Positions 9,521-26,905 of a stretch of DNA of 64,000 nt are shown one piece after another. The position numbers and the translations under genes are program-made. Source of the DNA: a virus. The stretch spans positions 1-64,000 of IMG/VR virus record IMGVR_UViG_3300032309_000634, one strand, 5' to 3'. Within the stretch, counting starts at the first letter, position 1. The number at the start of each line of letters is the position of its first letter. The notes under the pieces were generated by a model. That model was not told the DNA's origin. It made no database searches and saw nothing but the letters and a program-made list of their open reading frames with translations.

Positions 9521-12500
9521 TTATACCTCACTCAAATAAATAGTCATAGAAGGGCCATCTTGACTTCTGCTGTAATTAATATTATATATAACAAACCTTG
9601 TAGAGTCTGCTGTCACTAAATCTAATCCATCAGAATCTTTATAGTCTAGAGTAACAATATCTCCTAATTGTAATGTTGGTATGCTAAAAATGTTAGCTCC
9701 AACTATTTTTTTAGGCTCCATCACTTTATTTATAATCCAGTTCATAAGGGATTCTGCGCTATCTTGTGTCTGAATATATTGGCTATCAATAGAAAATTCA
9801 TTTTTGCCATACGTCATTCTGCTTTGTCTAATTCTGTCATATTTTTCTTTTTCAATAAAAGGAGAAATTATTTGATTTGTATCAGTTAATTCTGGATCTG
9901 CCATATTGCTACGCTTTTTAAAAAATTCATCAACCGTTAGTTCATGTGTTGTGTCTTGGGTAAATGTTATTCCTTGAATTCTTAAAAAGCTTCCTGTGGT
10001 TTCATCTAGATTAATTGCTTTATCTGTAGAGTTAAACACTAAAAACTCTGCGCCATAGGAGTCTGCTTGGAAGCCAGAAACCATATATGATTTAATTCTA
10101 TTAAAGGTTGGAGAGATTTGAGCATAAAGAGCTGGGTAAGCTCGATCATATTTAATATCAAAATACGCACACTCTCTCATGATTGATCCAAACTCTTCAA
10201 AATACATATTATATTTTGGTGGCTGTTGAGAACTTATTCCACCAAGGTAAGTAGATTGAACTACACCACTCATAGCATACTTTCTAAATGATTCATTTGC
10301 ATCAATGTCTTTATCCCCAAAAGCTTTAGAGATTGTTTCTCCAACATTAAAAGATGTGTTTTGAGAATAGTTTTGAGATAGCGCATATACATTTTCAAAC
10401 ATACATCTAGAGGATCCACGAATAAATAAAGCCATATTGTTATAGATTGGTAGAGGGTCTGTGTCATCTACTATCTGGATTAGCTTATTATTAATATAAA
10501 GATAGAATCTTCTTACTTTACCAATGTCTTCGTATTCTACTGATAAATCGTATACCGTTGGATTTTCTTCTCCAGCAAGTCTATATTGTCCAGTAAAAGA
10601 TCCGTCATCAATTAATATTTTTCCTAAGCCTCCCCATAACTTTACAGGAATAGCTTTAGAACTTGACGCATCTTTTTTGATTTTATAAAAAACAATATTA
10701 TCTATAGCGATGTTTGTGTTTCCAGCATTGTCAAACTTAAGGTATGATTCAATGTTGTTTTCAGTAAGTGCTGTAATTTCAAAATAATATCCATTGTTTG
10801 TTTCTGGATTAAGAAGTACTGCTATTCCTCCTCCTGCACCACCAATATTAACATTCTGATCTGTTTTACTTCCAGTAATCTGATAGTATGGTGTACTTCC
10901 AACAGGTGTTTGAAACTTGGTAGAATTGTTTTCAACTTTTCCAACAATACGAACTCTAGTTCCAAAATGCTTATACGCATTGTCTAACTTTTTATAAACA
11001 TAAGATACAAAACTAATTGGATTTTCTGTGCTTTTAAAAGAAGGTCCATTCATTACAAGTGCTGAAGATTGAACTGTTCCAGACTGGGTTGACTGTAAAT
11101 TATTTACAGAAGTTTCAGTCAAATAAGCTGTTGACATAAAGTTTTTAATAATTCCATTTCGTGTTGTTTTTTTTGCTAGAACATCATTTACTCCAGCAGC
11201 ACCTACTACTGTTGTTGGTCTGGTAATATTATTTATTAATGTATTAGTAAATAGATAATTAGAATCCATATTGCAGCCTCTAACGTAATCATTGTTTGAC
11301 CAATACGGATCAGCGCCAGCTGTATGAGAAGTCCGTATAGTATTAAACTGACCACGACCATGATCAACTACTGGCCCATTCTTAAGCCTAACAATATTTC
11401 CAATTGTTTCATAATATGGTGTTGCATAAATTCTAACTAAGCCAGTAGGGTAGATCTTTCCGTTAAATGGAAGTGATGAAAAATATCTTTGATACTCTTC
11501 GTTATTACTAATCCAAACATTTCCAGTTCCTGTAATATTGTATTGAACAGCATCATACTTAATTATCTCTCCATTAGAGTAAAAGTATCCTTGATTTCTT
11601 GTTAACCAATAAATATTTTCTCCAAAATCAATTATGTTATTAACTAGAACTCCAGAAACAACTTGTGGTTCAGTTGAAGATAGATTAGAATTTAATGGCA
11701 TCGCACCTAGCACATAACTTCCTTGTTTTGATGCTAACTCATTAATAGTTTTTGTGTTTTCTGTTCCAGCAACTTCCCATAACAAAGATGGTTTATATAT
11801 CCAAGTTCTTTCATTATCAATTAAGCTTGCTTGCTTTAATTTACCCAAAGATCTTTGAATATATCTTTCTGTATAGTTAATTTTTCCATCATTATAAATC
11901 TTTTTATCTTGTGAAGCAATAGAAATTAGGTTTGGCTGTTTTCCTGAAGAAACATTTTCTATTTCTCCAGTATCTGTTTGATTGTTTGATCCAGAAATTA
12001 CAAAATCTGTTGCTCTTTGAGATGTTGTTGGCATTAAGTAATCTTTACTCATAACAATAAAATTATTATTTTCATCAAAAAACATTGAGCTTTGACTTGC
12101 TCTAGCTAACTCATTTAAAACTTCCGCAACATTTTGATCTGGGGCAATAAAGAAAAATGGAATAACCATTTCAGATTCCCCAACAGTTCTTTTAAAAGAA
12201 TAATTACTAAATCCAATATAGTCAAGAATTAAACTAACAGCATAACTTAAAGATGTTTCTGTAGTTAATAATCTTGGTGCAGGCATTGATTCTAAGAAAA
12301 AGAATAGGTCTCTTAGTGTTAACGAAAGCGTAGCACCATTGTCATTAGCTTGTGGAACTCCTTCTGAATACAAAGTTTTTATAGGAACAAAATAGTCAAA
12401 ACCATTAACATCTAAAACAACTTCGTAAAAATTAAATTTAATGTTTTTTCTAATATATTTAGAGATAATGCTTGATGTATTATTTTCATTAAAGGCTTGA

Positions 12501-13846
12501 TCATAATCAAATATGTCTAAGGTTCCAGTTGAAGCTAAAAGTTGTCCAACAGGCATTGATGTAATTCCAACATCTGATAAAATTTTTGTAATCTGAAAGT
12601 CGGTAACTTTGTCTGAAATGTCAACTACTAATCTTGGCGACATTTCAATTAAATCAAAGGTAGAGTCAAACTTATTCATTGACTCTACAACAATTCTTAT
12701 ACCACGAACATAATCAAATTCACGATAAACAATTGATTGATTAGCAGTACTTATAAAAAAATCTTGGTTTGTTAGATCTTTAATAAAATTAGTTTGAGAG
12801 TTAACTTCTTCTGAGCCAAGAAACCAACCATAATTTGGAACAAAAGTTTCATATTCTGATGTTGTTGAATTCCAAACATGAAATGTTCCAACATCTGATG
12901 GATTCTCTTGAACTAAATACGCATAACCATTATATGATTTTTGAGGAAGTAAGGTTGTTGATGAAATTTTTTCTGCGTACACAAAAATAGATTTATATTT
13001 ATCTGGAATGATTACTCCATAATGTAATTCTAAATATCCGTCTGGACCTATAATGCTAGATCCGTCTTGTCTTAAAGAATTTTCATTAAATAAATAAGCA
13101 TCTACCCAGTTATTATTTTTTAGATATTGAACTTTCCATCTTTTTGGTGTTGTTTGATTAATATTTCCGTGTAATGGATCTTCAATTGATCTAGATCCAT
13201 TGCTAAATGGTCCAAGATTTACTGTTCCTACATTTGTTTGCATCTTTACAATAAGCCTATTTGCTGGAACTGGATTTTTATATACAACAAAAGGAGCCGT
13301 ATCGTCAATATAATAGTTTCCATTTGTTATATTTTTTGCAATTCCATACTCACTATTGTTTTCTGTTCTATATGAAGTCCAATATTTAAATTGATCATGC
13401 CTTGAAGCCATATAGTATCTTGGTCGCTCAGCAAGTCTTGCTCCAGAATTAGCTAAAAACCTGTTATTAAAATATGATGCTTTATTTATTCCAGACCTAG
13501 GTCTAAATGGCTTAATGCAATCTTCTAAAGAATAGATCATCTTCATCTTATCTTTGGTAGATTTAAATGTTTGGGGGATTGGATTATCTATATCATCATT
13601 AAAACCACTATTAACTACTACGTTAGAATCAGTGGCTCCAGTATAGTACCCTCCAGAATCGAGCTGGTCAAAGTCTATAGGAAGTGTAAAAAACTTACTA
13701 GATGGGGTTGTGGGTCTATATCGGTAATTTCCCAGTTTAAAGACATTATCTGGCATATTCATGTTCCACTCAGCCAGAACCAAACTCTTTAGCCTAATGG
13801 TCGCTGATGCCTCTAGATGACCCTTCAGTGCCTCACTTACAAACAC
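9521..13846 (-). CDS. Large tail-tip / baseplate hub-like protein
   Basis: 1441 aa, second gene after the TMP; C-terminal PTLQLGDIVTL..FVIYNINYS hub-like ending. Confidence 0.7.
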   Translation of the reverse strand: MFVSEALKGHLEASATIRLKSLVLAEWNMNMPDNVFKLGNYRYRPTTPSSKFFTLPIDFDQLDSGGYYTGATDSNVVVNSGFNDDIDNPIPQTFKSTKDKMKMIYSLEDCIKPFRPRSGINKASYFNNRFLANSGARLAERPRYYMASRHDQFKYWTSYRTENNSEYGIAKNITNGNYYIDDTAPFVVYKNPVPANRLIVKMQTNVGTVNLGPFSNGSRSIEDPLHGNINQTTPKRWKVQYLKNNNWVDAYLFNENSLRQDGSSIIGPDGYLELHYGVIIPDKYKSIFVYAEKISSTTLLPQKSYNGYAYLVQENPSDVGTFHVWNSTTSEYETFVPNYGWFLGSEEVNSQTNFIKDLTNQDFFISTANQSIVYREFDYVRGIRIVVESMNKFDSTFDLIEMSPRLVVDISDKVTDFQITKILSDVGITSMPVGQLLASTGTLDIFDYDQAFNENNTSSIISKYIRKNIKFNFYEVVLDVNGFDYFVPIKTLYSEGVPQANDNGATLSLTLRDLFFFLESMPAPRLLTTETSLSYAVSLILDYIGFSNYSFKRTVGESEMVIPFFFIAPDQNVAEVLNELARASQSSMFFDENNNFIVMSKDYLMPTTSQRATDFVISGSNNQTDTGEIENVSSGKQPNLISIASQDKKIYNDGKINYTERYIQRSLGKLKQASLIDNERTWIYKPSLLWEVAGTENTKTINELASKQGSYVLGAMPLNSNLSSTEPQVVSGVLVNNIIDFGENIYWLTRNQGYFYSNGEIIKYDAVQYNITGTGNVWISNNEEYQRYFSSLPFNGKIYPTGLVRIYATPYYETIGNIVRLKNGPVVDHGRGQFNTIRTSHTAGADPYWSNNDYVRGCNMDSNYLFTNTLINNITRPTTVVGAAGVNDVLAKKTTRNGIIKNFMSTAYLTETSVNNLQSTQSGTVQSSALVMNGPSFKSTENPISFVSYVYKKLDNAYKHFGTRVRIVGKVENNSTKFQTPVGSTPYYQITGSKTDQNVNIGGAGGGIAVLLNPETNNGYYFEITALTENNIESYLKFDNAGNTNIAIDNIVFYKIKKDASSSKAIPVKLWGGLGKILIDDGSFTGQYRLAGEENPTVYDLSVEYEDIGKVRRFYLYINNKLIQIVDDTDPLPIYNNMALFIRGSSRCMFENVYALSQNYSQNTSFNVGETISKAFGDKDIDANESFRKYAMSGVVQSTYLGGISSQQPPKYNMYFEEFGSIMRECAYFDIKYDRAYPALYAQISPTFNRIKSYMVSGFQADSYGAEFLVFNSTDKAINLDETTGSFLRIQGITFTQDTTHELTVDEFFKKRSNMADPELTDTNQIISPFIEKEKYDRIRQSRMTYGKNEFSIDSQYIQTQDSAESLMNWIINKVMEPKKIVGANIFSIPTLQLGDIVTLDYKDSDGLDLVTADSTRFVIYNINYSRSQDGPSMTIYLSEV

Positions 13847-14491
13847 TTAAACCTCTTCCAGGGTTACGGATACATTCCAAAGATCCATGTTGGTACCGCC
13901 ACGCTTTTGAACAGAATATGAGAAATCAGATATATAGACTTCCATAATTTGGCTATACTGATTTAGATGATTAAACTGGTTTTGGTCTTCTGTAAAGTTT
14001 TTATATTTATCATATGATAGAAATATCCAAAAAGGTCCTTTATGGTTTTCATACCAGTCTAGAAGTTCTGCTCCACCTGCACCGCCATCTACTGTAAATT
14101 CTTGAGATGGGCTTTGACCTTTATAGGGGGATATTCCAGTTGTAATTCCAAAATCTGCAACATTGGGATATGCTCTTGATGGTAGATTATCCCATGATGT
14201 AGCAATTGTTATCTTATCTGCAATATGGTATGATCTCATTCTTCCATTAATTGTTCTTTCACGCTTTTCAATACGAATAGGCTTGAACTCAATAGGCTGT
14301 CTATTATGATCTGAGATTATTAAAAACTGGTCTATCTCTGAGGTTGCAGCATCTTCTGGTGCATTAGCCCCTACTTCATATCCAATTGGGACATAAAGAC
14401 CATTTGATAGTGTACCAGCATTGTTAGACCATAGCATTGCCTGTGGTCTTTGATACCTGCGTCTTCCAGATAGGTATGCTGCTGTTGCCAT
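13847..14491 (-). CDS. Distal tail (Dit-like) protein
   Basis: Immediately after the TMP; ends WNVSVTLEEV like tube-fold Dit proteins. Confidence 0.6.
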   Translation of the reverse strand: MATAAYLSGRRRYQRPQAMLWSNNAGTLSNGLYVPIGYEVGANAPEDAATSEIDQFLIISDHNRQPIEFKPIRIEKRERTINGRMRSYHIADKITIATSWDNLPSRAYPNVADFGITTGISPYKGQSPSQEFTVDGGAGGAELLDWYENHKGPFWIFLSYDKYKNFTEDQNQFNHLNQYSQIMEVYISDFSYSVQKRGGTNMDLWNVSVTLEEV

Positions 14492-17400
14492 TATCGTTGT
14501 CCTCTAACTCTTTGTCCATCAATATATTTAATCTTCTGCATTACTGTGCTAGCAATATCATCGGCATTTAAATTATTACCGTTGACATTTACACTTAAAC
14601 TATAATTATACACTGAAGAATCTGGAGACATACCACTATTTATCTTTGATAGATTCTTTACTCCATATGAATCTACTGCTGACTTTTTAATAACAAATTC
14701 TCCTGGGGTAAGCATAGCTGGGATAGTGTCAGTTCCCATAGCGTAACCACCTGAAGCAAATAATTGAGGAATTAGGCCACCAGAACTTGCTGTAATATAT
14801 CTATTCCATTTTGTTCCACCTGGCAAGTTAGGTAACCAAACTGGAACTCCATTAACTGCTAATCCTACTATATTGTTATTATTTAGCAAATTACCAGAAT
14901 ATGGCTGACCATCAACAGTAAAAAATTTTTGATTCGATGGGCCATAAGAACTAATTCCACCAGCCTTATCAACAAGTGCATCTTTACTATTTCCAACTTG
15001 ACCATGATTAGCGTAAAAGTCTTTGTAAGAATTTAGATAGTTAGCATCGTAGTTAGCATCTGCTCCCTTGGCAATGCTTTCCCTATCTCCTGTATATCCA
15101 CTATTAACGGCATCTGCTCTGGCTTCATATAATTGTTTATCGGTCATTGATGAATATTTTTTATATTCTGCTATTCCAGCTGCAATAGCTTCTTGTGCTG
15201 AAAGAAATTCTGTTGCTGCAGCATTAGCTGCATCAACTACTGTAGTAAGTGCTTCTGCAGTTTTGGTAGTTCCAGCAATTAAAGCATCTGAAGTTTTAAC
15301 TGAATAATCAGCATCTAAAGCGATAATACTGGCGTTATATGCTGCTAGATCAGCATCAAGCATAGCTTGATTTGCTGCTAAAGCTGCAGCCAAGGCTGCA
15401 TCAAATGCTGATTCTGCTGCTGCTATTGCGGCATCGGCTGCTGCAGTTGTTGCTGCGTCCGCTGCATCAAGTATTTTTTGAGCAGCGGCTTTTTCTGCTG
15501 CGGTCTTTGCGTCAGCTAGTGCTTTATCTGCTGCTTCTTTTTCTTCTGCTTTCTTTTTAGCAGCTGCAACAAGAGCATCAGCTTCTGCTTGAGCCTTATC
15601 AGATGCAGCTTGAGCATCTGCAATAATTTTATTTGCTGCTGCTGTAGCATCTGCAGTAATTTTATCGGCAGCAGCTTTTGCATCAGCTTCTGATTTAGCT
15701 ACATCTATTTTACTTCCAGAAGCAGTAACAATACTTTGTGCGGTGGTTGTAATTTTAGAGTCTTTTGCAGGGGTTGCAGCATAGGCCCCAATTTTTGTCA
15801 TGATACTTGTCCACTCAGCATTGATTGCTGTTGATGCTGCTAATAGCCCAGCAAAAGCGGTATCTAAATCTTTACGGGATAAATCATAAGCCTTTACCTT
15901 AGCTTCAATAGCAGTCCAAGCTTCTCTAGTTCTTCCAAGAACTTCAATTTCTTTTTCTAGTTTTTCAAGTCTTGCTTCAATGATTTCATTTTCATTATTT
16001 AAAGCAGCAATCATTCTTTCTTTATCTACAATATTATCTTTAGTAATTTTAGCAATTTCAGTTTCATAGGCTTGAACTTGCTCTAAAGCTATAGATCTTG
16101 CTTGTTCAAGAGTATAGATACTATTGGTTTTAGCTTTAATTTGATCCTGAATTGATAATTTTTTAGGATCAGTATCTAAACTATAAATCTTTTGAGAAAG
16201 TTCAAATTGTCTTTGTTTAATCTCTTCTTGTGTAAGAAGACCAAGTTCAATTTTATTTCCAGTTACTGGATCTATAGCAATTCTTGAAGCACTTAAAATT
16301 CCTTCTATATCATCTTTTCTTGATTTCTCTAAAGCTTTTTGTGAATTAGACTGAGCAAGTTCAACATTGCTTCTACGAACATCTTGCATTGCTTTAGCAG
16401 CAGCTGAGATGTCTCCACTTGAAAGTGCAGCAGCTAGTCCTATTCTATTTTCTTCTTGTTTTAAAATTGCATCATTAATATCTTTTATAGTTTCAAGAGC
16501 TTTTGCTTGTTTGTCATACTCTTTAGTTATTAGCTCTGATGCATTGTTGACAACATCTAAGTCATTTGATAGTGCGCTTAATTCATCCTGCAGTTCTTTA
16601 ATTGGTTCGTTAAACCTAACTTCAATTTCACGCTGTAAATCATTAATTTCTTTTTGATATTTATCAACCTTTTGGCTAATGTTAAGGGCAACCGATGCTT
16701 GAATATCATTAATCTTATATTGTAGTTGTTCAATCTGTGCTTCGTATGGTCTAAGTTGTGCTTGTAGTTCTTTGATTTTTGATTCATTAGCTGCAAGTTG
16801 TGCAACATCTTTGGTGCTTCTAGGATCTACACCAGTTCTAATTAGATCTTCCTGTACCGCAAACATTTGGTTAACCATGTCAAGACCAGAAGATGCAACC
16901 TGTCCAAATTCTCCCTTGTTAAAATTAATTTGAATGTCAATCAGTTTCTTAGATTCAATATCTTTTAGGTATTCGGAGATTGCTCCTGTTGAACCTTCAA
17001 TGGCTGCTATATCAATTTTGCCATTTTTAATGTTTTGCGTAAACTGCTTAAGCATTGCTGGGTTTCCAAGAACTGCATCAATTTGCTCTACAGAATATCC
17101 CATAGATTTCATTGCTTTGGCTACATCTGGAGTTTTCGCAAATACATCAAACTCTGCGTTCTTTGTAAGGGTGTCAGTTATAACCTGCATCTTTTCCATT
17201 GCGCTATTAGCTGCAGCAATGTCTTTAATAAACTTCTTCATTTCATCTGACCCTGCAGCACCAAGGGTTCCAGCAGCAATGGCTGAAGCAAGAGATTGAT
17301 CCTGAATTACTTTTAAGGCATCAGTAACTGACATTCCTGCATCTTTAAGAATCTTAAATGCTTCTTGTTGTTTTTTAATATTGTCTATGCTTTGTGCTGC

Positions 17401-20400
17401 CCCCATTTGAGCCATGCCTATATTTACTGAGTTAAAAGCTTCTGATAACCCCATTAACTCTTTAGACAGTCCAACAATATTGCCATCCTTCATTATGAAG
17501 GGAGTTTCTTTATCCTTTGTATTTGGATTTAAATCCATGCCCTGAAAAGCTTTAAACTCTTCTGCTGACATTCCAGATATTGCATCCATTAATACTGGAG
17601 AAAGATTGCCTTGTAACATTATTTGCTGTAAGCCGTTAAACTTTTCAAACATTCTACCAAGACCTTTTTCAGCATCTTTAGTATTTGCAAAAGCAGACAT
17701 TATAGACTTTAACGGATTAAGTGCGTCAAAAGCCTGATCTCTAAATAATTTTAGCTTCATTCCTAAATCATCAAGGAAGGATGTTGCACTCTTTAGTGTG
17801 TCTGCTGCTTCAGCAGCTGCTCTTTTCTTTGCATCATCTGCAGTTGCTGTGCCAAATATTTGTGGGAGAAAGCGATCAATTGCTTTTTTCTCTGCTGCTG
17901 CAATGTTCTTAGGATCTGCTTTAAATGCTTCTTTATCTAAAGCTTTCTGTCTTTCATAAGCTCTCCTACTCTCGGTGCTACCAAAAGCAACGTCTCCAGC
18001 ATATTGTGGATTCTTTTTTTCAAAAGCTGCTTCAAGTTCTCTGTCGATTATCTTATCAAAACTATCGCTTTGAGTTATTGACCCAACTGTAAACATTGCC
18101 TGGAACTGTAAGTTTTTTGGAAGTTTAGAGATTGCGTTCCAGTTGGTTATTGCTGAATCTAGGGTTAGATTTTTTCCTGCTCCACCTGCAGCTTCTTGCA
18201 TTTTAACAAGAGCTTCTAGAGTAATCTTTCCATCAGGAAATTGCTTTTTAAGTGCTGCAATCTCTTTTCCAACTGCTTTAAGTCTTGGAATGTCGGACTT
18301 GTTTGTTTCAAGGTCTATCTTAATTCCAATAAAGTCTGGAATCTTGCCAAGCTCTTCGACTGCAGACATAGTTGCATCTGCATCATCTTTGTTCATTGTT
18401 TTTATTCCAAGAAGTAGTTCTTTTTGATTTTCTTCTTCTGGAATTAGTGTAAGTATTGTAGAAAGTCTTTGTAGGCCTTCAGTTCCTTGAACTTTAACAA
18501 TAGCATTTAAATCTTTTGTAATGTCCCCACCAGTTTTAGTCATTGTAGAAACAAGGGTAGATGCTTCATTTGGAGTTAAAACATCTGAAGTTACTAATGC
18601 AGAGATCTCAAGGGTGACCTTATCATTTCCAATCTTGTCGAGCTGACTCTGTAGATTGTCCGCTTGTATTTTTAATGGAGCATTGTCTTTAAACTTTTCT
18701 TGCATTCCAACTTTATAAGCTTCCATATACTTATCACGTGCTTGCCCACGACCAGAACCAAGTGGGCTTAAAGTTTCCCCTAGTGATCTTTTTGCAACTT
18801 GATCATACCCAGAAGAAGCAGAACCAAGAATGTCTGCTTGATTTTCTCTTAGTGTTTTTAATCCAGAATCCTTTTTAGAAAGTAGATCGGCTATTTGAGA
18901 ATCTATCTCTGCACGTTCTTTTTCTGTTTTTAATGTTTTCTTTTTAATTTCTAAGTTTGCAATTGCTGAATCGTATTGTGAAGATAGTGCATCGATACTT
19001 CCCTGAGATGCACTTAAATTTTGTGCAACAAGACCTTGCATGATTCCCGCTGCTTTTCCTATTGCTGCTTTTTCTTTACCCTTTTGCCAACTACGAATAG
19101 CTGTTTCAATACCGCCAAAAATAACAGTTGATACTGCTGCTCCAACTAGTGCTGCTGGCACACCAAAACCTGTTGCGCCTACCGCTGCAGATCCAGCAGT
19201 ACCTGCAACTCTTGCTGCTTTTGCAACTTTTAGTGCTGTTCCAATTTTTCCTGATCCTCCTGCACGAGCAAGGGCTGCTTCTTGAGAAAGAAGTGAAGCG
19301 GCACCTACGCCACCTTGAACCATTCTTCCTGCTTGAATTCCAGCTCTTGCTGCAAGGAGTCCGCCACCGATTCCACCTACTGCTAGTTGCCCAAACTCTC
19401 CCTTATTAACCCCAACTTGTTGCTTAGTAACTCGGTTTAAATTGTCAAGAGCAGCCTGTTGTAGATTTTTTCCAGTATTTATTAAATCAACTTGAACTTG
19501 TAATGGATTATTAACAAGATTTTCTCCATTAGGTCCAAGTAACTGAATTAGCCTTCCTCTTACGTCTAGCTCTAGTCTTGCATCTTTTAAGTTTCTGGTT
19601 AGTGCGATTGCAATTGATTCAGCTTGGTCATTAGTTAATACGCCCTGGGATACTGCAGTTCCTAATTGATTTACTAAAGAGTCAACTGCTGATCCTGTAC
19701 CCAAGGTTTTTACTGTTGTTTCAAAACTAGACTTTAGGTTTTTACCAAAATCACTGGTTTCTAAAATGTTATTTCCAAATTCAATACTTACTGGAACTAG
19801 GTCAGTATTTCTTCCAGCTCTTTTTGCTTGCTCTACTTGTGTAACAGACATTGTGTTTGTGATCTTACCAAGAGCTTCAAGCTGATTGGTAGTCATAGTC
19901 ATTGCTTCTGCTTGTTTTTGTCCTTCAATTATATTCCGTTTAATTGTTGAAGATTGAATTTTAAATACCGCAGCAAGTGAAAGTGCTGCTGCGCCAGCAA
20001 TTTTTAAAGGTGAATTAAATATTGACATAAACATTGGAATCAAAGATGCCACAGAAATTGCAACCATATTTTTAGAAAGAAGTTGTCCTGCTGCTGAGTC
20101 AGGCTGGGATGCTGCAATACCTTGAGCAACCATAGGAAGCATCATTGCTGCCATGCCAATACCCATGGATTTTTGTGCAGTATTCATTCTATTTGCTTGA
20201 CGCATATTTATGCGTTCTTCAGGAGTCGCAGTTCTTGTTACTCCCTTATCATCTGTTACAGTGTTTGATACATTGCCAAACCCATTAAGCCAGCCACGGA
20301 AACCTCTGGTTTTATCTTTTCCAAAAGACTCTGTTGTTCCAGATACAGCCTTGTCAAGTTTTTCAACCTTTGGGGTAGTTTTTTCAAACTTACTTCCAAG

Positions 20401-23400
20401 CTTATCAATTCTGTCGCCAAGTTTTTTAATTTTTGGTTTGTCAAAGAATTTATCAATAGCACGTGAGACTCTATCTTCTCCTGGTGCAACGGTTGGTGCT
20501 GTTGGCATTGGACCCCAGCCATCTCCCTTATCTCTCCATGATCCTGGATTGCCACCCCAAGGGCTTGGAGTAATATTTGAGTTTTCAAACCCAGGTATCG
20601 TATCACTAATCATTGATTTAATTAATGGCATATACTTTTGAGATTGCTTTGCTGGGATTACTGCTTCTCCTGGTGACAACATTGCTGGAACAATATCTCC
20701 CGCACCTTTTGGTCCAGGGACTGAGAATATACCGTTTGCAAATCCAGCAACTCTTTCAACAGTTATACCTTTAGGGCTAATGTCAGTTATTACAAACTTA
20801 CCGCCAAACATTCTTTCTGATTCTGGAACACCTTTTTGACTATACATATTTTTAAATAATGAATGTACTGGAATTACATCTTGGTTTTTAAAAGATGTTT
20901 TAACTGTAAATGGAATAACGTCTTTTTTAGTTATTGCTTGATCTCTTGTATTTTTTGCAAAACCACTAGCAATGGATTCTTCAGAACTCCAAGCAGATGT
21001 TCTCATATTAAATGGTTTTCCAACAAACTTACTTAATGCATCTCTTTGTTCAGCACCTTTTAGAGTTGTTAAAATTTTATAAATTTCACCAGAAATTTCA
21101 GGTGGCAGGGTTCCTAATTTTTTCTGATAATAGGAATTTCCAGACAATCCTGTTCCTCTAAAGAAAGTTCCAGACTCTTTTGTACGTAAAGATTTAGTTA
21201 AAGAATTATATTTTTTAAGACTAGTTACAGGATAATAACCATCTTTCCACAGTTTTACTAAAGCTTTGCCTAATAATTGTTTTGGTACTCCTGCTTTTAG
21301 AGCATTATCAATTGCTAAATTTGCCTCTTTGTCCTCAGAGTAAGTTCTTAGTGTTTTTATTGTTTTGTCATATTCTTCTTTTTGTTTTGCGCTTAGATCT
21401 TTAATTAAAGTATTTGACGCAAGTCTTCCAGATGGATTAAATACAGTTTTTGCTTTAGGAGATGCAATGGGTTTAGCTGTTAGTGGTATTCTACCAGCCA
21501 TGTATCCTGGAACGTCACCAGAAATCATTGATTGAATTAATGGTCTATACTTTGCAGACTGTTTAGCAGGAATAACTGCTTCTCCAGGAGATAGCATTGC
21601 AGGAACAATATCTCCTGCTCCCTTTGGACCTGGAACAGAGAATAAACCTTTATTTGCATAAATTAAATTATCTTGTCTAGATGCAGTTCCAAATTTTTCG
21701 TAATAATTTTTTTCAATTCTATAAGGTAGTGCTTTTTCTAGATATTTATCAAAATTTGTAAATGTTTCTGAACTGTTTTTCTTTGCATTTACTTGTGCTA
21801 ACAATGCCATAGCTTGAGCACGTGATTGTGGATGTTCTGCATTTCCATAGTAAACGAGAGCCTGATTCATGGCCTGAGTATCTTCAAACAAATATTCAGG
21901 GAGGTCGTCTTCTGCGTTACGCATTCGTTTTGCTGCTGGAGTTATATGACTTAAAGCTCTAGATGAATAAAACTTTGATACATCTCCAGTTTCTTTAATA
22001 TAACGTTGTAATGGCATGCTTGTGCCGTCAGGTAAAGTAATCTTTTTTGCTGGTTGCGTTATTGTTGCTAATACATCTGCAGGAAGAACTTCTTTTAGGT
22101 AGGCTTCTTCTTCATCAATAAACTGTTGTTGTTCTTTATATATTTTCTTATCTTTATAAAGACTTCTTCTATTTTTGGCGCTAGGTGTTACATTACTGCT
22201 TCTTCCTCTACCGCCTGACCCGAGAACGGAGCCAACCTCTGATGCTGTTACAGTTTTCCCTGATATTTTTCTTATGCCTCTTTCACCAAACATCTTAGCT
22301 TTAAAAGCTTCTAGGATTTGCTCATCATTTAATCCTTTTGATTTCCAATACATTTCATTTTCAGCAATTTTGTCTTCTACTGCTTTTAAATTTTTTGGTG
22401 TAACGGTAAACTTAATTCCGCCTAAATCAAACTCCGTGTTATCTCCTTGGAATCTTCTATTAATTCTTGATAACAAAGATCTAGAAACACTTGATTCTCC
22501 AGCTGAAAAAATACTCCTGGCTGCCGCTTCTCTTGCGCCTGAAACTCTTATCGCAGTTGCTGATGGACCGAAAGTTGGCATACGTCCAGCCATGTATCCT
22601 GGAACTATTCCGCCCTTAGCAAAACCATTACTTTGTGCCCATTTAGCAAAACCCTCCATGAAGTCTCTATCAGATAAGGATGCACCATGTCCTTTTTGTC
22701 TTGCTCTTAATGCAATTTCATCTTCTATTTTCTTTATTGCTGCAGGAGTTAATGCTTTCTTTGGATTAGCAACTACTGATGAATGAATACCATGAATTTC
22801 TCTCCAGTTGGCATCCCTAGCATCCTCTAAGCGTTTAATCATGTTTTGATAAATACCCTGCTCTTCTTTATTTAACTTAAAGCTTGCTATTGTTGCTCTA
22901 AGTTTTGGAAGAGTGTCATCGATCTCTTGTATCATTCTTGTACGGTATTCTTCTGCAGTCATTCCCCTTGGAATATCAGCTGTTGCTTCAGCAAAGAATC
23001 TCTTTGTATTTGAGCCTTTTACTCCAAGCAAGTTTATACGTGCTTGCTCTTCAATAGATGGCATTTCTTTTGAATATGTTCTAAACCCAGAAGCGGTATC
23101 AAAGACTCCAGCATTTCCTTGATCCACCACATTCTTACCAGATACGTTTGCAATCTGCAGATCTTTATCTCCTCTTACAGTAGAAGCTAAAAGCTGCGAG
23201 AAGTAATCATCTTTAGTAAAGACACCATCTGGTTTTGCAAACTCAGGGTTGTAAGGGGCTTCAGATACAATAATTTTTCTCTTCTTTTGTGGATCAGTTG
23301 GATCAATCATTGTACGAATTGTATGCTCTGGTGCTTTTAGTGGGAAGGCTTTGTTTGTAATAGTAGACATTCTTTCTTCTGCTAAAGCAGCAGTCTCATC

Positions 23401-25809
23401 AACATATGGCTTAACAAATACCTTAGTTCCATCTGGCTTTTGATACAATCCGCCAATTCCTTTAACAGGAAATGAGTGCCCTGTGGTTGCTTCAAGCTGA
23501 ACGCCAAAATCTGTTGGATCCATGTCAGCAAATCGACTTGCTTCAGTTCCTTTTCCAATTGACTCCATTGACAGTCTTGCTTTGCGTTGATCTGTAACAG
23601 CTTTAATAGTTTTTGGCATGCCCAGGAATAGTGGCAGCCTTCCAGCCATATGGCCTGGTAAAGTTCCGTCAATCATCTGTCCAATAAATGGTGCGTACTT
23701 CTTTGCCATATCAGCAGGGATAACGGCTTCTCCAGGAGTTAGAAGTGCTGGGGTAGTATCTTGATTCCCCGTTCCAGGAACACTTGTTACGCCTTTAGCA
23801 AAACGCCTTGGAGGGGTGACTCTAGCAACGCTTGGCATAAACATTCCTGGGTTTGTGCTAGCAAAACTAGACATTGCAACTTTAGCTTCTCTATACGTAT
23901 TTGTTAAGGCAACAAGACTTGCTGACTCAAGGACGTATGCTGCAGATAATGCTTTGTGAGATGTTGCAAGGCTGTTAGATATTGCAATATTTTCTAACTC
24001 TTCATTAGTTAAATATTGTGTTCCAAGAGCTGCATCTTTAGATCCATAGGCTAAGCTTTGGAAACCTTTGCGAATAAGGTTAAACATTTTCATTAAGTTA
24101 GCTAAACCATTAGCAACAAGACCAACAGTCATAAGAAGGACTGGACCAATACCAGCAACAGCTGCTATAATAATTGCTACTGCTTTTTTAATTCCTTCAG
24201 GTGCGTTGTTAAATTTATCAAATAATTTAACAAAAAACTCAATTACTGGTGTTAAAACTTTTGCAAACAATTCACCTACTGGAGCAATAGAAGCTTTGAG
24301 TTTTTCAATAGCTGCTTGCATCTTATACATTGGTGAAGATTCTTGCGTTTTTAGTTCTCGCTGAGACAATAAAGCTAATTCTTCTGCTGAGGCAGAAGCC
24401 ATTTTTAAGACTCTACTTGCTTGACTTCCTTCTTTTGTTACGTTATTTAAAAGAGCAGAGATTCTTGCAAACTGGTATTTACCAAAAACTTTTTCAATTG
24501 TTTGTGCTTTTTGCAAATCTGTCAAAGGCTGAAGAGCTTCAGCAAATGATAATACTGTATTTCTTAGGTTACCTTGATTGTCTTGAACAATGCCCTTAAG
24601 GTTAATACCAAGTTTTGCTGCTGATTCAGATGCAGCTTTAGATGGATTAATAAGAGATGCTAGGCCAGACTTAAGTGCGTTAGCACCTTGCTCTGCGCTA
24701 ATTCCACCTTCTTTCATTGCTGTCAAGAAGAAAGCTAAATCTTCTACATTGCCACCAAGTTGTTTAATAATTGGGGCAACTTTTGGAAGTGCGTTAGATA
24801 AATCTTCAAGACTTAAAACGGTTTGGTTTTCAACAGAGTTAAGGAAATCCATTGTTTTTCCAAGTTCCTCAGATCCAATAGAAAAAGCATTTTGCAGTGC
24901 AATAGTTGTTTCTAATGCTTTATCTTGTGCCACGCCACCTAGGACTGCAAGCTTATTTGCCTGCTTTACAACTTCCTCTAATTGCTTTCCAGAATTACCA
25001 GCTGCAGCAGCATCGGCAGCCATCTTAATTGTTTCAGAAACTTTAAGCCCATACTTTGTATATTCTTTTGCAAGATCTCTTATATTTTTAAGAGCTTTAT
25101 CACTTTCGCCTTCAGTAGTAAATATGTCACCATAAACTTTTCTAAATCTTATTGCCTGAGTTTCAATTTCTTTAAATGATTTAATTGCTGATCCTGCAAA
25201 CATAGCCAAGGGAATTGTAAAACCAACCATAAGCTGACGACCAGCCCATTGTGTATTTTTACCAAAGTTAAGAAGTTTTGTAGATCCATCATCAAGTAGT
25301 TTATTAAATATTTGTTGGCGTTGAATCGCCATAGACATATTAGTTAATTGATCATTATAGTTAAGATTTTTAGGAGTAACTCGCATTGAGTTTAATGCGC
25401 CAGAAGCATCTTTACCTAATTGAACATACTGGCTTTGAAGTGCCTTTACTCTTTTTTCAACTAAACTACTAATTGTTGAAAACTCTTTAGCATAATTTTT
25501 GCCAAATGTTTTTGTTGAAGCCATGCCATATCGGTAATACTCACGAAGTGATAATTTGCCAGACTCTAAACTACGAGAAAACTGCTCTGTAGCAGTTGAC
25601 ATCTTGCCCATAGAGGCATTAAACATGCCTGTAGCATTAATGTTATGTAAAAGTGATTTTGAAAAATCGGCTTGGGCTAGTGATGCAGCCTTTGTACCGA
25701 CAATCATGGAACGGTTAAACGCAGATATCTGCTTGTCTAGCCCACGTAGTGCGGACATAGCTTGCGTTGTGTCAATATTAATTAAAATATTGCTGTTTAT
25801 ATCTGCCAT
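14491..25809 (-). CDS. Tape measure protein with internal enzyme-like cassettes
   Basis: 3772 aa after the tail chaperones; TP901-type TMP region (about aa 200-460), hydrophobic segments, long coiled coils, C-terminal GTDTIPAMLTPGEFVI motif; globular inserts at about aa 670-1740. Confidence 0.93.
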   Translation of the reverse strand: MADINSNILINIDTTQAMSALRGLDKQISAFNRSMIVGTKAASLAQADFSKSLLHNINATGMFNASMGKMSTATEQFSRSLESGKLSLREYYRYGMASTKTFGKNYAKEFSTISSLVEKRVKALQSQYVQLGKDASGALNSMRVTPKNLNYNDQLTNMSMAIQRQQIFNKLLDDGSTKLLNFGKNTQWAGRQLMVGFTIPLAMFAGSAIKSFKEIETQAIRFRKVYGDIFTTEGESDKALKNIRDLAKEYTKYGLKVSETIKMAADAAAAGNSGKQLEEVVKQANKLAVLGGVAQDKALETTIALQNAFSIGSEELGKTMDFLNSVENQTVLSLEDLSNALPKVAPIIKQLGGNVEDLAFFLTAMKEGGISAEQGANALKSGLASLINPSKAASESAAKLGINLKGIVQDNQGNLRNTVLSFAEALQPLTDLQKAQTIEKVFGKYQFARISALLNNVTKEGSQASRVLKMASASAEELALLSQRELKTQESSPMYKMQAAIEKLKASIAPVGELFAKVLTPVIEFFVKLFDKFNNAPEGIKKAVAIIIAAVAGIGPVLLMTVGLVANGLANLMKMFNLIRKGFQSLAYGSKDAALGTQYLTNEELENIAISNSLATSHKALSAAYVLESASLVALTNTYREAKVAMSSFASTNPGMFMPSVARVTPPRRFAKGVTSVPGTGNQDTTPALLTPGEAVIPADMAKKYAPFIGQMIDGTLPGHMAGRLPLFLGMPKTIKAVTDQRKARLSMESIGKGTEASRFADMDPTDFGVQLEATTGHSFPVKGIGGLYQKPDGTKVFVKPYVDETAALAEERMSTITNKAFPLKAPEHTIRTMIDPTDPQKKRKIIVSEAPYNPEFAKPDGVFTKDDYFSQLLASTVRGDKDLQIANVSGKNVVDQGNAGVFDTASGFRTYSKEMPSIEEQARINLLGVKGSNTKRFFAEATADIPRGMTAEEYRTRMIQEIDDTLPKLRATIASFKLNKEEQGIYQNMIKRLEDARDANWREIHGIHSSVVANPKKALTPAAIKKIEDEIALRARQKGHGASLSDRDFMEGFAKWAQSNGFAKGGIVPGYMAGRMPTFGPSATAIRVSGAREAAARSIFSAGESSVSRSLLSRINRRFQGDNTEFDLGGIKFTVTPKNLKAVEDKIAENEMYWKSKGLNDEQILEAFKAKMFGERGIRKISGKTVTASEVGSVLGSGGRGRSSNVTPSAKNRRSLYKDKKIYKEQQQFIDEEEAYLKEVLPADVLATITQPAKKITLPDGTSMPLQRYIKETGDVSKFYSSRALSHITPAAKRMRNAEDDLPEYLFEDTQAMNQALVYYGNAEHPQSRAQAMALLAQVNAKKNSSETFTNFDKYLEKALPYRIEKNYYEKFGTASRQDNLIYANKGLFSVPGPKGAGDIVPAMLSPGEAVIPAKQSAKYRPLIQSMISGDVPGYMAGRIPLTAKPIASPKAKTVFNPSGRLASNTLIKDLSAKQKEEYDKTIKTLRTYSEDKEANLAIDNALKAGVPKQLLGKALVKLWKDGYYPVTSLKKYNSLTKSLRTKESGTFFRGTGLSGNSYYQKKLGTLPPEISGEIYKILTTLKGAEQRDALSKFVGKPFNMRTSAWSSEESIASGFAKNTRDQAITKKDVIPFTVKTSFKNQDVIPVHSLFKNMYSQKGVPESERMFGGKFVITDISPKGITVERVAGFANGIFSVPGPKGAGDIVPAMLSPGEAVIPAKQSQKYMPLIKSMISDTIPGFENSNITPSPWGGNPGSWRDKGDGWGPMPTAPTVAPGEDRVSRAIDKFFDKPKIKKLGDRIDKLGSKFEKTTPKVEKLDKAVSGTTESFGKDKTRGFRGWLNGFGNVSNTVTDDKGVTRTATPEERINMRQANRMNTAQKSMGIGMAAMMLPMVAQGIAASQPDSAAGQLLSKNMVAISVASLIPMFMSIFNSPLKIAGAAALSLAAVFKIQSSTIKRNIIEGQKQAEAMTMTTNQLEALGKITNTMSVTQVEQAKRAGRNTDLVPVSIEFGNNILETSDFGKNLKSSFETTVKTLGTGSAVDSLVNQLGTAVSQGVLTNDQAESIAIALTRNLKDARLELDVRGRLIQLLGPNGENLVNNPLQVQVDLINTGKNLQQAALDNLNRVTKQQVGVNKGEFGQLAVGGIGGGLLAARAGIQAGRMVQGGVGAASLLSQEAALARAGGSGKIGTALKVAKAARVAGTAGSAAVGATGFGVPAALVGAAVSTVIFGGIETAIRSWQKGKEKAAIGKAAGIMQGLVAQNLSASQGSIDALSSQYDSAIANLEIKKKTLKTEKERAEIDSQIADLLSKKDSGLKTLRENQADILGSASSGYDQVAKRSLGETLSPLGSGRGQARDKYMEAYKVGMQEKFKDNAPLKIQADNLQSQLDKIGNDKVTLEISALVTSDVLTPNEASTLVSTMTKTGGDITKDLNAIVKVQGTEGLQRLSTILTLIPEEENQKELLLGIKTMNKDDADATMSAVEELGKIPDFIGIKIDLETNKSDIPRLKAVGKEIAALKKQFPDGKITLEALVKMQEAAGGAGKNLTLDSAITNWNAISKLPKNLQFQAMFTVGSITQSDSFDKIIDRELEAAFEKKNPQYAGDVAFGSTESRRAYERQKALDKEAFKADPKNIAAAEKKAIDRFLPQIFGTATADDAKKRAAAEAADTLKSATSFLDDLGMKLKLFRDQAFDALNPLKSIMSAFANTKDAEKGLGRMFEKFNGLQQIMLQGNLSPVLMDAISGMSAEEFKAFQGMDLNPNTKDKETPFIMKDGNIVGLSKELMGLSEAFNSVNIGMAQMGAAQSIDNIKKQQEAFKILKDAGMSVTDALKVIQDQSLASAIAAGTLGAAGSDEMKKFIKDIAAANSAMEKMQVITDTLTKNAEFDVFAKTPDVAKAMKSMGYSVEQIDAVLGNPAMLKQFTQNIKNGKIDIAAIEGSTGAISEYLKDIESKKLIDIQINFNKGEFGQVASSGLDMVNQMFAVQEDLIRTGVDPRSTKDVAQLAANESKIKELQAQLRPYEAQIEQLQYKINDIQASVALNISQKVDKYQKEINDLQREIEVRFNEPIKELQDELSALSNDLDVVNNASELITKEYDKQAKALETIKDINDAILKQEENRIGLAAALSSGDISAAAKAMQDVRRSNVELAQSNSQKALEKSRKDDIEGILSASRIAIDPVTGNKIELGLLTQEEIKQRQFELSQKIYSLDTDPKKLSIQDQIKAKTNSIYTLEQARSIALEQVQAYETEIAKITKDNIVDKERMIAALNNENEIIEARLEKLEKEIEVLGRTREAWTAIEAKVKAYDLSRKDLDTAFAGLLAASTAINAEWTSIMTKIGAYAATPAKDSKITTTAQSIVTASGSKIDVAKSEADAKAAADKITADATAAANKIIADAQAASDKAQAEADALVAAAKKKAEEKEAADKALADAKTAAEKAAAQKILDAADAATTAAADAAIAAAESAFDAALAAALAANQAMLDADLAAYNASIIALDADYSVKTSDALIAGTTKTAEALTTVVDAANAAATEFLSAQEAIAAGIAEYKKYSSMTDKQLYEARADAVNSGYTGDRESIAKGADANYDANYLNSYKDFYANHGQVGNSKDALVDKAGGISSYGPSNQKFFTVDGQPYSGNLLNNNNIVGLAVNGVPVWLPNLPGGTKWNRYITASSGGLIPQLFASGGYAMGTDTIPAMLTPGEFVIKKSAVDSYGVKNLSKINSGMSPDSSVYNYSLSVNVNGNNLNADDIASTVMQKIKYIDGQRVRGQR
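20585..23803 (-). repeat. Repeated ~55-aa linker within the TMP: full copies about 23631-23803, 21484-21660 and 20585-20745; short copy 22577-22627; related C-terminal copy about 14660-14790
   Basis: FSVPGPKGAGDIVPAMLSPGEAVIPAKQS is identical in two copies; VPGTGNQDTTPALLTPGEAVIPA in another; PG(H/Y)MAGR(L/M/I)P occurs three times. Confidence 0.9.
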
Positions 25810-25839: not shown

Positions 25840-26166
25840 TTATTCTTGTGAAGCAAGTGCAAGTAATGCTGAATCATTTAGATTGATTCCTGATGCTGCT
25901 TCAATGATCTTGTACACTGTTGGCAGATCAACTAGATCTTCCAAATCAGCAACAGAGTAGTCTGCTTCTGGCTTGTATTGTTTCATTGCAATGTGTGCAC
26001 AATGGATTAAGATATCCATTGATTTTTCGTTATCTGTTGCAACCGCTGTTAGTCCTTCAAAAGATTTCATAAATGGTCTAAGTAAAGAGATCTTAAGTGG
26101 TTGTGCATCAATTTTTGTTCCGTCAATAAAGACGACTTCATTTTTTTCTTTTGGCGTTGTTGCCAT
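25840..26166 (-). CDS. Tail assembly chaperone, short (G-like) paralogue
   Basis: Immediately before the TMP; start MATTP at 26166 after AGGAGG; homologous to the N-terminal half of 26213-26905. Confidence 0.75.
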   Translation of the reverse strand: MATTPKEKNEVVFIDGTKIDAQPLKISLLRPFMKSFEGLTAVATDNEKSMDILIHCAHIAMKQYKPEADYSVADLEDLVDLPTVYKIIEAASGINLNDSALLALASQE

Positions 26167-26192
26167 ATATAACCTCCTGTGGTTGTATGTCA

Positions 26193-26201
26193 ATTATAGC
26201 A
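26193..26201 (-). promoter_or_regulatory. Extended -10 promoter TGCTATAAT for the short chaperone and TMP
   Basis: Intergenic TGnTATAAT upstream of SD AGGAGG. Confidence 0.6.
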
Positions 26202-26212
26202 TAAAACGCTGT

Positions 26213-26905
26213 TTAGGTTAAGTTTTCGTAATCTAATCCCATCCCAATTCCAAAACCAGCTTTTTGGGCGTTCACTCCTTGAAGTGATAAAACATCATTT
26301 GAATCTGAGGTCTGTCCACCACTAAATACCCTAGCTTTCATATCTTCCCACTCTTTTTGTCCTCTATCTTTTCCGCTTTCTGCGTCAAGATCAACACCTT
26401 GCATAGCAGCAAGAAATTTCTTTTCTGAATAATCTAAATCTCTTACAGCTTCTAAAGTAATCATTAATTCTGACATAGAGAGAGATCTTTCTAGTTCGTC
26501 ATAGTCTTTCCATATGCCCAGCAAAAATACTTCAGACTCTAGTTTTGCTAAATCTAACGTCTCCCAGGTTTCCCCACTTTTTTGTGCTTGATCTTTTACG
26601 GGCTCTTCTAATTTTCTATTTATCTTAATACCAGCAGATATATCTAGTATTTTGTATATAGTTGGCATATCAACATTGTCTTCTACATCTTCTACTGTTT
26701 TAGATATTTCAGGATAATATTGTTTCATGCAAATTCTTACACATTCCACAAGAGTGACTATAGCCTCATCATCATTTTTAGATTTTTTAATATCATCAAA
26801 TGCCACCATAAATTCTCTAAGATACTTAATCTTAAGTGGAGATATTTCTAGCTCTGTTCCATTAAACAAATAAACATTGTCTGTTGTGTATACTTTAGTT
26901 GCCAT
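26213..26905 (-). CDS. Tail assembly chaperone, long (GT-like) form
   Basis: After the tail tube gene; G-like N-terminal half plus a C-terminal helical domain. Confidence 0.75.
   Translation of the reverse strand: MATKVYTTDNVYLFNGTELEISPLKIKYLREFMVAFDDIKKSKNDDEAIVTLVECVRICMKQYYPEISKTVEDVEDNVDMPTIYKILDISAGIKINRKLEEPVKDQAQKSGETWETLDLAKLESEVFLLGIWKDYDELERSLSMSELMITLEAVRDLDYSEKKFLAAMQGVDLDAESGKDRGQKEWEDMKARVFSGGQTSDSNDVLSLQGVNAQKAGFGIGMGLDYENLT

Follow-up and report, generated by a model that had tools for sequence, protein, structure and literature searches.

The window analysed here is a 64,000-nucleotide stretch of viral DNA (positions 1 to 64,000 of IMG/VR record IMGVR_UViG_3300032309_000634), and this report is concerned with one gene on its minus strand, which encodes a giant tape measure protein (TMP). 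Within residues 665-1745 of the TMP lie three mutually unrelated modules, here called cassettes C1, C2 and C3, which are set off from one another by copies of a linker peptide or, at one joint, by a short stub of it. The features of the gene are as follows, with coordinates in the window.

14491..25809 (-), TMP gene, 3,772 amino acids (aa), a single uninterrupted open reading frame (ORF) of 11.3 kb
24142..25212 (-), TP901-type TMP core domain, aa 200-556 (TIGR01760)
24094..24195 (-), first hydrophobic, membrane-like segment, aa 539-572 (Kyte-Doolittle 19-aa window, maximum 2.55)
23632..23817 (-), linker L1, aa 665-726, ending PGHMAGRLP (linker hidden Markov model (HMM), 91 bits)
22627..23631 (-), cassette C1, aa 727-1061 (335 aa), predicted atypical protein-kinase-like domain
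22576..22626 (-), short joint, aa 1062-1078, GFAKG-GIV-PGYMAGRMP (motifs; DNA repeat family D7)
21661..22575 (-), cassette C2, aa 1079-1383 (305 aa; eight-sequence alignment)
21484..21660 (-), linker L3, aa 1384-1442, ending PGYMAGRIP (linker HMM, 99 bits)
20746..21483 (-), cassette C3, aa 1443-1688 (246 aa), helical bundle and probable ADP-ribosyltransferase (ART) core at aa ~1545-1690
20575..20745 (-), linker L4, aa 1689-1745, ending PGFENSN (linker HMM, 102 bits)
19096..20067 (-), two more hydrophobic segments past the array, aa 1915-1933 and 2208-2238 (Kyte-Doolittle)
14650..14772 (-), C-terminal copy of the linker core motif, aa 3680-3720, GGYAMGTDTIPAMLTPGEFVIKK (linker HMM, 13 bits)

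Results

The tape measure protein and its cassette array

Two profile models identify the N-terminal part of the protein: Pfam PF10145 (PhageMin_Tail) matches residues 245-443 (E 5.9e-29; 101.8 bits, cut-off 33.2) and NCBIfam TIGR01760 (tape_meas_TP901) matches residues 200-556 (120.7 bits, cut-off 28.8). Over its first 575 residues the protein shares 28-30% identity with TMPs annotated in phages of Streptomyces, Gordonia and Staphylococcus. Chaperone-like short ORFs (25840-26905) flank the gene on one side and distal or minor tail genes (9521-14491) on the other; portal and head protease genes lie upstream, and a 214-aa ORF followed by a 1,441-aa minor tail protein (phrog_10359) lies downstream. 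Because the core-domain matches, the gene position and the similarity to annotated TMPs all agree, the product of 14491-25809 is, on sequence grounds, a TP901-family TMP in the canonical tail-gene position.

A first-pass annotation of the same DNA, made from the letters alone, had placed motif-bounded cassettes at aa ~669-1742, and the motifs lie where it had put them: PGHMAGR begins at residue 718 and PGYMAGR at residues 1070 and 1434, while GFAKG, YANKG and GFANG are found at 1062, 1384 and 1689. The core motif PA(L/M)L(T/S)PGE recurs at residues 687, 1403, 1708 and 3697. Two signature regular expressions occur three and four times in the TMP and not once in 20,000 shuffles of the protein. 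The same annotation had described the cassettes as three unrelated domains that are not plain helical TMP sequence, and both descriptions hold. In a cross-comparison of C1, C2 and C3 the best match had an E value of 0.04 over 41 aa, indicating no mutual similarity, and the structure models of C1 and C3 are of mixed alpha/beta type. Its size range of 245-320 aa accommodates C2 and C3 but is slightly exceeded by C1, and its picture of a ~55-aa linker between successive domains needs amendment. Full linkers number three only (L1, L3 and L4); the joint between C1 and C2 is a 17-aa stub that retains just the two linker ends, and L4 lacks the PG(H/Y)MAGR ending, reading PGFENSN instead. A fifth, degenerate copy of the motif stands near the true C-terminus of the TMP (aa ~3680-3720). 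Hydrophobic, membrane-like segments are found on both sides of the array, the first of them before it and the other two after it.

Cassette C1 and the kinase fold

At the level of sequence, C1 has no match in Pfam, NCBIfam, PHROG or the PDB (sequence and profile searches), and no model in Pfam (even at E 10) or NCBIfam matches any of 39 C1 members collected from IMG/VR loci. An alignment of these 39 sequences served as input to AlphaFold2, which returned a model with a mean pLDDT of 82.7 and a pTM of 0.77. The top Foldseek matches to this model in the PDB are all kinases, beginning with PKA (E 4.8e-4) and continuing with JNK, CtkA, YabT and LepB. The VIA structure search, which is independent of Foldseek, ranked the CotH kinase highest (Z 11.5, root-mean-square deviation 3.8 over 218 residues), then PI4KII-alpha (Z 9.9), MavQ (9.5), CtkA (9.3), Golgi casein kinase/Fam20 (9.0) and HipA (8.7), with PI3K/PIKK, actin-fragmin kinase and RIO kinases at lower ranks and a coverage of model residues ~12-290. 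The Z values for several kinase subfamilies lie within 2-3 units of one another.

The residues expected of a kinase occur in the expected order, namely G784xGG787, K800 (in FVKP), E811, D881xD883LxxxN888 and D896xG898, their roles being assigned from motif order rather than from superposition. The lysine, the glutamate, D883, N888 and D896 are each retained in 174-175 of 175 distinct homologues. Because the model matches, the ordered signature and the retention of the catalytic residues point the same way, we conclude from the model that C1 has a protein-kinase-like fold of an atypical kind and, from residue conservation, that it is very probably catalytically active, with protein, lipid or sugar as candidate substrates.

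Cassettes C3 and C2

An alignment of eight C3 sequences, with identities down to 26%, has as invariant features F-R1551-G, a tryptophan and E1663-S-E1665, the last conforming to the pattern E1663-x-E1665. The serine motif (T-S1605-A-W-S) is degenerate: every sequence has at least one serine there, and the column is not fixed. The spacing is R-54-S-58-E, and the order corresponds to the aromatic-Arg, Ser-x-Ser and Glu-x-Glu elements of R-S-E ADP-ribosyltransferases. The AlphaFold2 model of C3 has a pLDDT of 65, and in it the first ~100 residues of the cassette fold apart from the rest as a bundle of helices. Among the top 50 Foldseek matches in the PDB most are ARTs (Vis, the best at E 0.089, CDTa, C3bot, iota Ia, C2-I, ExoS and Certhrax), although as matches they are weak (E 0.09-1.6). 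A wide VIA search was swamped by the helical bundle, and the ART core was seen in a second search limited to model residues 104-250, which retrieved CDTa (Z 4.6), C3bot (4.0), Vis (3.9) and an ART toxin/immunity pair (3.9); over the ARTs as a whole Z ranges from 3.6 to 4.6 across ~100 residues of a weak model, and the toxin domain of Yersinia RHS2 reaches Z 5.1. Against BFVD, the top matches are phage ARTs, VIP2-like toxins, MuF-type 'minor capsid' fusions and Alt-like RNA polymerase ADP-ribosylases, with a best E value of 0.055. No member of the C3 family matches a curated ART family in Pfam, NCBIfam, PHROG or the PDB sequences, and for this reason we file C3 as ART-like rather than name it a member of an ART family. 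Taking the model and the conserved residues together, we consider it likely that C3 is an ART-like enzyme.

C2 belongs to a small family that includes the second cassettes of two related TMPs (L001 and L003, 22-27% identity). Its invariant residues are E1234, S1287-H1288, N1315, R1364 and Y1370, and H1326 is kept in seven of eight sequences. The arrangement S-H...N...H, a pattern seen by eye, led us to consider an HNH nuclease, which finds no support in any library and is not claimed. The suggestion of the first-pass annotation that the cassettes are enzymes is thus borne out in part: C1 and, more weakly, C3 model as enzyme folds, whereas no enzyme identification was obtained for C2.

The linker peptide

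The linker has the consensus ..YA.G(V/I)xSVPGPKGAGDxVPAMLSPGEAVIPA....KY..LI..MI..N(I/L)PG... Like the three cassettes, it has no match in Pfam (scanned with every alignment member, at E 10), the PHROGs, NCBIfam or the PDB (by sequence and by profile). In a tblastn search of isolated phages it retrieved only genes annotated as TMPs, at ~40% identity, from phages of Gordonia, Burkholderia, Ralstonia, Enterobacter, Morganella, Pseudanabaena and others. In the two isolated-phage records inspected, the match lies 70-170 aa before the C-terminus of the TMP. Because its matches fall near the C-termini of isolated-phage TMPs, the linker is, as judged by these alignments, an internal copy of a widespread C-terminal TMP motif. 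One copy is present at aa ~670-725 in every relative, cassette-free ones included.

The copies differ far more at silent than at replacement sites: between L3 and L4 pN is 0.11 and pS 0.63, and their DNA is 81% identical over 129 nucleotides. This pattern indicates that the peptide is under purifying selection and that the copies are old. The same figures, the 81% DNA identity and the pS of 0.63, exclude a role for the linker as a newly arisen DNA repeat promoting recombination within the gene. A further candidate was the mapped cleavage site of T5 pb2. By eye, the joint (F/Y)A(K/N/S)GG followed by a hydrophobic residue and PG resembles the 5-6 residues after that site (R|AEGGMMYPG); the linker profile does not recognise the site, scoring 0.9 bits (about the 95th percentile of shuffles) and doing so at another place, and the match was rejected as a resemblance by eye only.

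Variation among related tape measure proteins

Relatives were gathered by their similarity to these cassettes, so that the frequencies of architectures among them are biased while the existence of variation is not. The N-terminal part of the TMP is common to 19 IMG/VR loci at 48-97% identity. Fourteen of these (L006-L019) have one linker and zero cassettes, with complete TMPs of 1,889-2,518 aa; four (L001-L004) have C1 and a divergent C2; and in L005 C3 comes first and C1 second. Relatives with 0, 1, 2 or 3 cassettes were found, and the 189 distinct TMPs that reach 1,800 aa or more show 20 architectures. Two comparisons with the window (percentage identity) illustrate the range.

P0152: N-terminal part 99%, L1 98%, C1 79%, C2 98%, C3 98%
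L005: N-terminal part 52%, L1 51%, C1 43%, C2 absent, C3 80%

A search with C1 of 1.84 billion representatives gave 924 matches. Almost all of the top 150 of these are proteins of 2,000-4,400 aa, in which C1 begins anywhere from residue ~200 to residue ~2,170. C1 forms more than 100 clusters at 50% identity, essentially always within TMPs of 2,000-4,400 aa, and hundreds of related giant TMPs occur across many metagenomes. The position of C3 ranges from aa 169 to aa 3588 among relatives. All homologues of C1, C2 and C3 that were found sit inside giant TMPs; there were no stand-alone homologues of C3 (138-440 aa) or of the C2 family (169-594 aa), and tblastn with the complete cassette region as query retrieved nothing from 50,697 genomes of isolated phages at 1e-5.

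The architecture of the window recurs in P0152, an independent assembly, at 93-99% identity. Across the cassette region the two differ only at aa 725-999, starting at the last residues of L1, and C1 is identical again over aa 1000-1061. The C1 of P0152 is 98.8% identical to that of L004, and two C1 alleles, 79% identical to each other, circulate on TMP backbones that are 97-99% identical. These comparisons mark the C1 of P0152 as a cleanly substituted allele: the exchanged patch meets the linker on its left and ends within C1 (aa ~999) on its right. The proposal that the linker is a recombination joint accordingly survives for one clean left boundary, at aa 725, but not for the right breakpoint, which falls within C1, nor does the linker behave as a recent repeat.

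Other cassettes are found as well. A HAD IIIB acid-phosphatase domain (PF03767, 53-60 bits, cut-off 27) is present in the cassette region of three related TMPs:

L079, 1985-3490
L080, 10892-13999
L081, 9658-12444

The cargo repertoire therefore includes a phosphatase as well as the predicted kinase. P0154, a 4,253-aa TMP with C3 and C1, also has CHAP (PF05257) and LysM (PF01476) domains, so that a single TMP combines modules of wall-degrading and of cytoplasmic type. At least eight further cassette families, one of them large, occur among the relatives. The commonest non-kinase cassette (53 segments by single linkage) stands directly after linker 1, often starts ..G(T)DFAHVG... and has no Pfam match; examples are:

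L066, 7763-8695
L067, 9065-10000
L071, 8207-9130
L062, 902-1684
L076, 2764-3657

Cassettes are gained, lost, reordered and allele-replaced among related phages. The comparison of relatives that the first-pass annotation had proposed thus came out in its favour, in that the number, order and identity of cassettes vary while the N-terminal part of the TMP and the linkers are conserved.

Genomic context and host

The longest recorded contig that carries the TMP is 83,790 bp, and the G+C content of the window is ~36%. The phage encodes a replication set, comprising a DnaE-type Pol III alpha subunit (with PHP domain), a DnaG-type primase and a DnaB helicase, and also a B12-dependent class II ribonucleotide reductase. 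No tRNA gene was found in the window. Further features are these.

1-2880, 3565-5698 and 39050-41080 (-), replication genes and ribonucleotide reductase, jointly
35263-39015 (-), 1,250-aa ORF between the portal and ribonucleotide reductase genes, with no Pfam or PHROG match
15215-15700 (-), alanine-rich, low-complexity helical tract of the TMP (AAADKITADATAAANKIIADAQAASDKAQAEADALVAAAKKKAEEKEAADKALADAKTAAEKAAAQ...), aa ~3370-3530, with short imperfect DNA repeats

This last tract and aa 2450-2700 are the other places at which the TMPs of the window and P0152 differ most strongly, length included.

Among 185,579 species-representative genomes C1 has only two matches, both on contigs of metagenome-assembled genomes (MAGs) labelled Actinomycetota: L088 (CAZCDW010000001.1, 85,019 bp, labelled 'uncultured Bifidobacterium sp.') and L089 (CAYVOK010000043.1, labelled 'uncultured Acidimicrobiaceae'). 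The 85-kb L088 contig is sized like the genome of this phage and is probably a binned phage contig. An actinobacterial host had been suggested in the first-pass annotation. The likeness of the TMP core to TMPs of Gram-positive phages (28% identity of the N-terminal part to those of Streptomyces and Gordonia phages) and the two MAG labels hint at a host in Actinomycetota, both being weak indications.

Discussion

Proposed delivery of the cassettes

The tail tube of a siphovirus is filled by its TMP, which exits when infection begins. In the mechanism that we propose, the TMP core and first hydrophobic segment would be followed by three independently folding modules fenced by linker copies; the protein would fill the tail lumen and, on expulsion, enter the cell envelope before the DNA does, which would bring the modules in as pre-made protein. 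The kinase, using ATP, and the ART, using NAD+, might then modify host proteins for takeover or counter-defence before phage genes are transcribed. The linkers could be sites of cleavage, comparable to the processing of T5 pb2 and lambda gpH, or could serve only as flexible or docking joints. Given the modules that the TMP contains and their gain, loss, reordering and exchange among relatives, the tail probably brings ready-made enzymes into the host. The more specific account, in which C1-C3 would be delivered as protein with the TMP and would modify host targets by means of ATP and NAD+ before phage transcription, is one that we moderately favour.

Relation to known systems

The principle that an enzyme fused to a TMP acts in the host is already published. 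In Thermus phage P23-45 (and likewise in P74-26, G20c and TSP4) gp96 is a 5,002-aa TMP with an RNA polymerase fused at residues 327-1124 (Chaban et al. 2024, PMC10770324); the polymerase is borne in the virion and transcribes the pre-early genes on the incoming genome, and the relatives G18 and phiFa are without the fused enzyme (PMC10770324). The protein described here shares with gp96 its giant size and the placement of predicted enzymes in the N-terminal third beside membrane segments. It differs in that P23-45 has a single two-barrel RNA polymerase, with no report of a repeated joint, a stack of cassettes or the shuffling of their order, whereas a predicted kinase fold, a probable ART fold and a third module are combined here, and their delivery is a prediction.

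A second parallel is found in the polyvalent proteins (Iyer, Burroughs, Anand, de Souza and Aravind 2017, PMC5512222), giant proteins that include ARTs, kinases and peptidases and are predicted to be injected with the DNA against host defences. Their architectures are highly variable between orthologues, and they include a kinase family without the C-terminal subdomain in (pro)phages of Verrucomicrobia and Bacteroidetes (PMC5512222). As in those proteins, several unrelated effector-type domains are united here in one large phage protein encoded among virion genes. The anchors of the polyvalent proteins are MuF, portal, relaxase or N4-type RNA polymerase domains, whereas the anchor here is a TMP with no MuF or portal domain in the protein and with a dedicated, repeated linker fencing each module; tape measure proteins are not mentioned in the polyvalent-protein paper (PMC5512222).

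The TMP of T5, pb2, is cleaved after R1127 and its enzymatic C-terminal piece stays in the tail tip, T5 pb2 and lambda gpH both being processed TMPs (PMC10038345). An enzyme domain inside a TMP is common to T5 and the present case, but the enzymes of pb2 and other wall-degrading TMPs act on peptidoglycan and sit at the C-terminus. T4 Alt and the MuF-VIP2 fusions are virion-packaged R-S-E ARTs that modify host proteins at the start of infection (PMC5512222, PMC7302621). C3 resembles them in its probable ART type, such phage ARTs being its top BFVD matches. Those proteins travel in the head, however, and sequence searches detect no similarity between them and C3. Finally, Sle1 of an actinobacterial contractile injection system (CIS) has a TMP-derived transmembrane platform and a species-specific functional domain that can be swapped experimentally (Nagakubo et al. 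2026, PMC13277306). It too has a TMP-related carrier with an exchangeable functional domain; it is a bacterial CIS cargo rather than the ruler of a phage tail, with one functional domain per protein, and its abstract mentions neither a kinase/ART stack nor a repeated linker. The literature searched contained no report of a TMP with kinase or ART cassettes.

Alternative explanations

Several points weigh against the account favoured above. The C3 model is poor (pLDDT 65), and every ART match has E of at least 0.055 and Z of at most 5.1. C2 has no match in Pfam, the PDB or NCBIfam, and no enzyme identity is assigned to it. The relatives were selected by their cassettes, with the bias noted above. 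Three chains, each with ~120 kDa of globular domains, are hard to fit folded into a tail lumen of ~4 nm; the cassettes would thus have to travel unfolded or sit elsewhere. Some cassettes of relatives (the CHAP/LysM pair and the class-B-type HAD acid phosphatase) belong to types of enzyme that usually work in the envelope and not in the cytoplasm. This last point leads to an alternative that we think rather improbable, in which the cassettes would serve envelope penetration or tail assembly, with wall, membrane or virion substrates or as binding modules, and not cytoplasmic takeover; they would then correspond to the peptidoglycan hydrolase or peptidase domains that TMPs are known to contain. 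Those extracytoplasmic enzyme types in related TMPs speak for it, as do the release by cleavage of a muralytic metallopeptidase from T5 pb2 (PMC10038345), the presence of non-cytosolic kinases (CotH, Fam20) among the nearest structural neighbours of C1, and the position of the array between hydrophobic segments. That C1 retains its residues for ATP binding and phosphotransfer in 174-175 of 175 homologues, and that the arginine and ExE of C3 are invariant, argues instead for true users of ATP and NAD+, cofactors that are essentially confined to the cytoplasm, and Pfam finds no peptidoglycan-related domain in the TMP of the window. Were the cassettes instead cut out of a polyprotein at the linkers during tail assembly, to act in the producing cell, in late functions or by modifying virion proteins, or to be discarded, while the helical ruler parts remain, the difficulty of fitting globular domains into the lumen would vanish. 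The proteolytic processing of the T5 and lambda TMPs in tail morphogenesis gives this idea a precedent, and each cassette ends at a copy of a motif normally found near the TMP C-terminus. We nevertheless hold it to be doubtful, to much the same degree: the cleaved piece of T5 remains in the tail, the mapped T5 site goes unrecognised by the linker profile (0.9 bits), late enzymes made in a 1:1 ratio with a minor tail protein would be an odd design, and the TMP-fused enzyme of P23-45 is in the virion and acts after injection.

That the cassettes are selfish in-frame insertions which target the conserved linker and are tolerated without benefit to the phage, a TMP being able to absorb extra sequence, appears very unlikely. 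They do sit at a conserved target motif and differ between close relatives, and the S-H...N...H pattern of C2 recalls HNH nucleases by eye; yet C1, its catalytic residues preserved, is spread over more than 100 clusters at 50% identity, which argues for long-term selection for activity, library scans of the cassettes found no intein, HNH or homing-endonuclease family, and every cassette is in frame. An artefact of assembly or annotation, whether a chimeric contig or the read-through of separate genes, has a negligible probability in view of the 11.3-kb open frame, the same architecture in the independent P0152 assembly and the hundreds of related giant TMPs; nothing was found in its favour, although the source is an uncultured-virus record. 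Returning to delivery of the cassettes with the TMP, a bolder form of it would make the linker a processing-and-docking tag copied from the TMP C-terminus, with a polyprotein cut at the joints, several free effectors, kinase and ART among them, in the lumen and fired ahead of the DNA, and re-arming by cassette swaps. We regard this form as unlikely; if true, phages would possess an equivalent of polymorphic toxin systems and of cargo loading in type VI secretion systems and CIS.

Conclusions

If true, delivery of the cassettes would extend the single experimentally proven case, that of P23-45, to a general modular system, and two uncurated enzyme families, one of kinase fold and one ART-like, neither with a Pfam model, would join the factors of early takeover or counter-defence. 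The arrangement also raises a structural question, namely how globular domains of ~120 kDa per chain could pass through or be seated in a siphovirus tail. The joint peptide is a candidate signal by which the TMP might be processed or docked, and it may offer a way to engineer cargo into phage tails. Should the modules be delivered, the tail ruler of a large, uncultured and mostly lake-dwelling phage group would be a reconfigurable injection vehicle.

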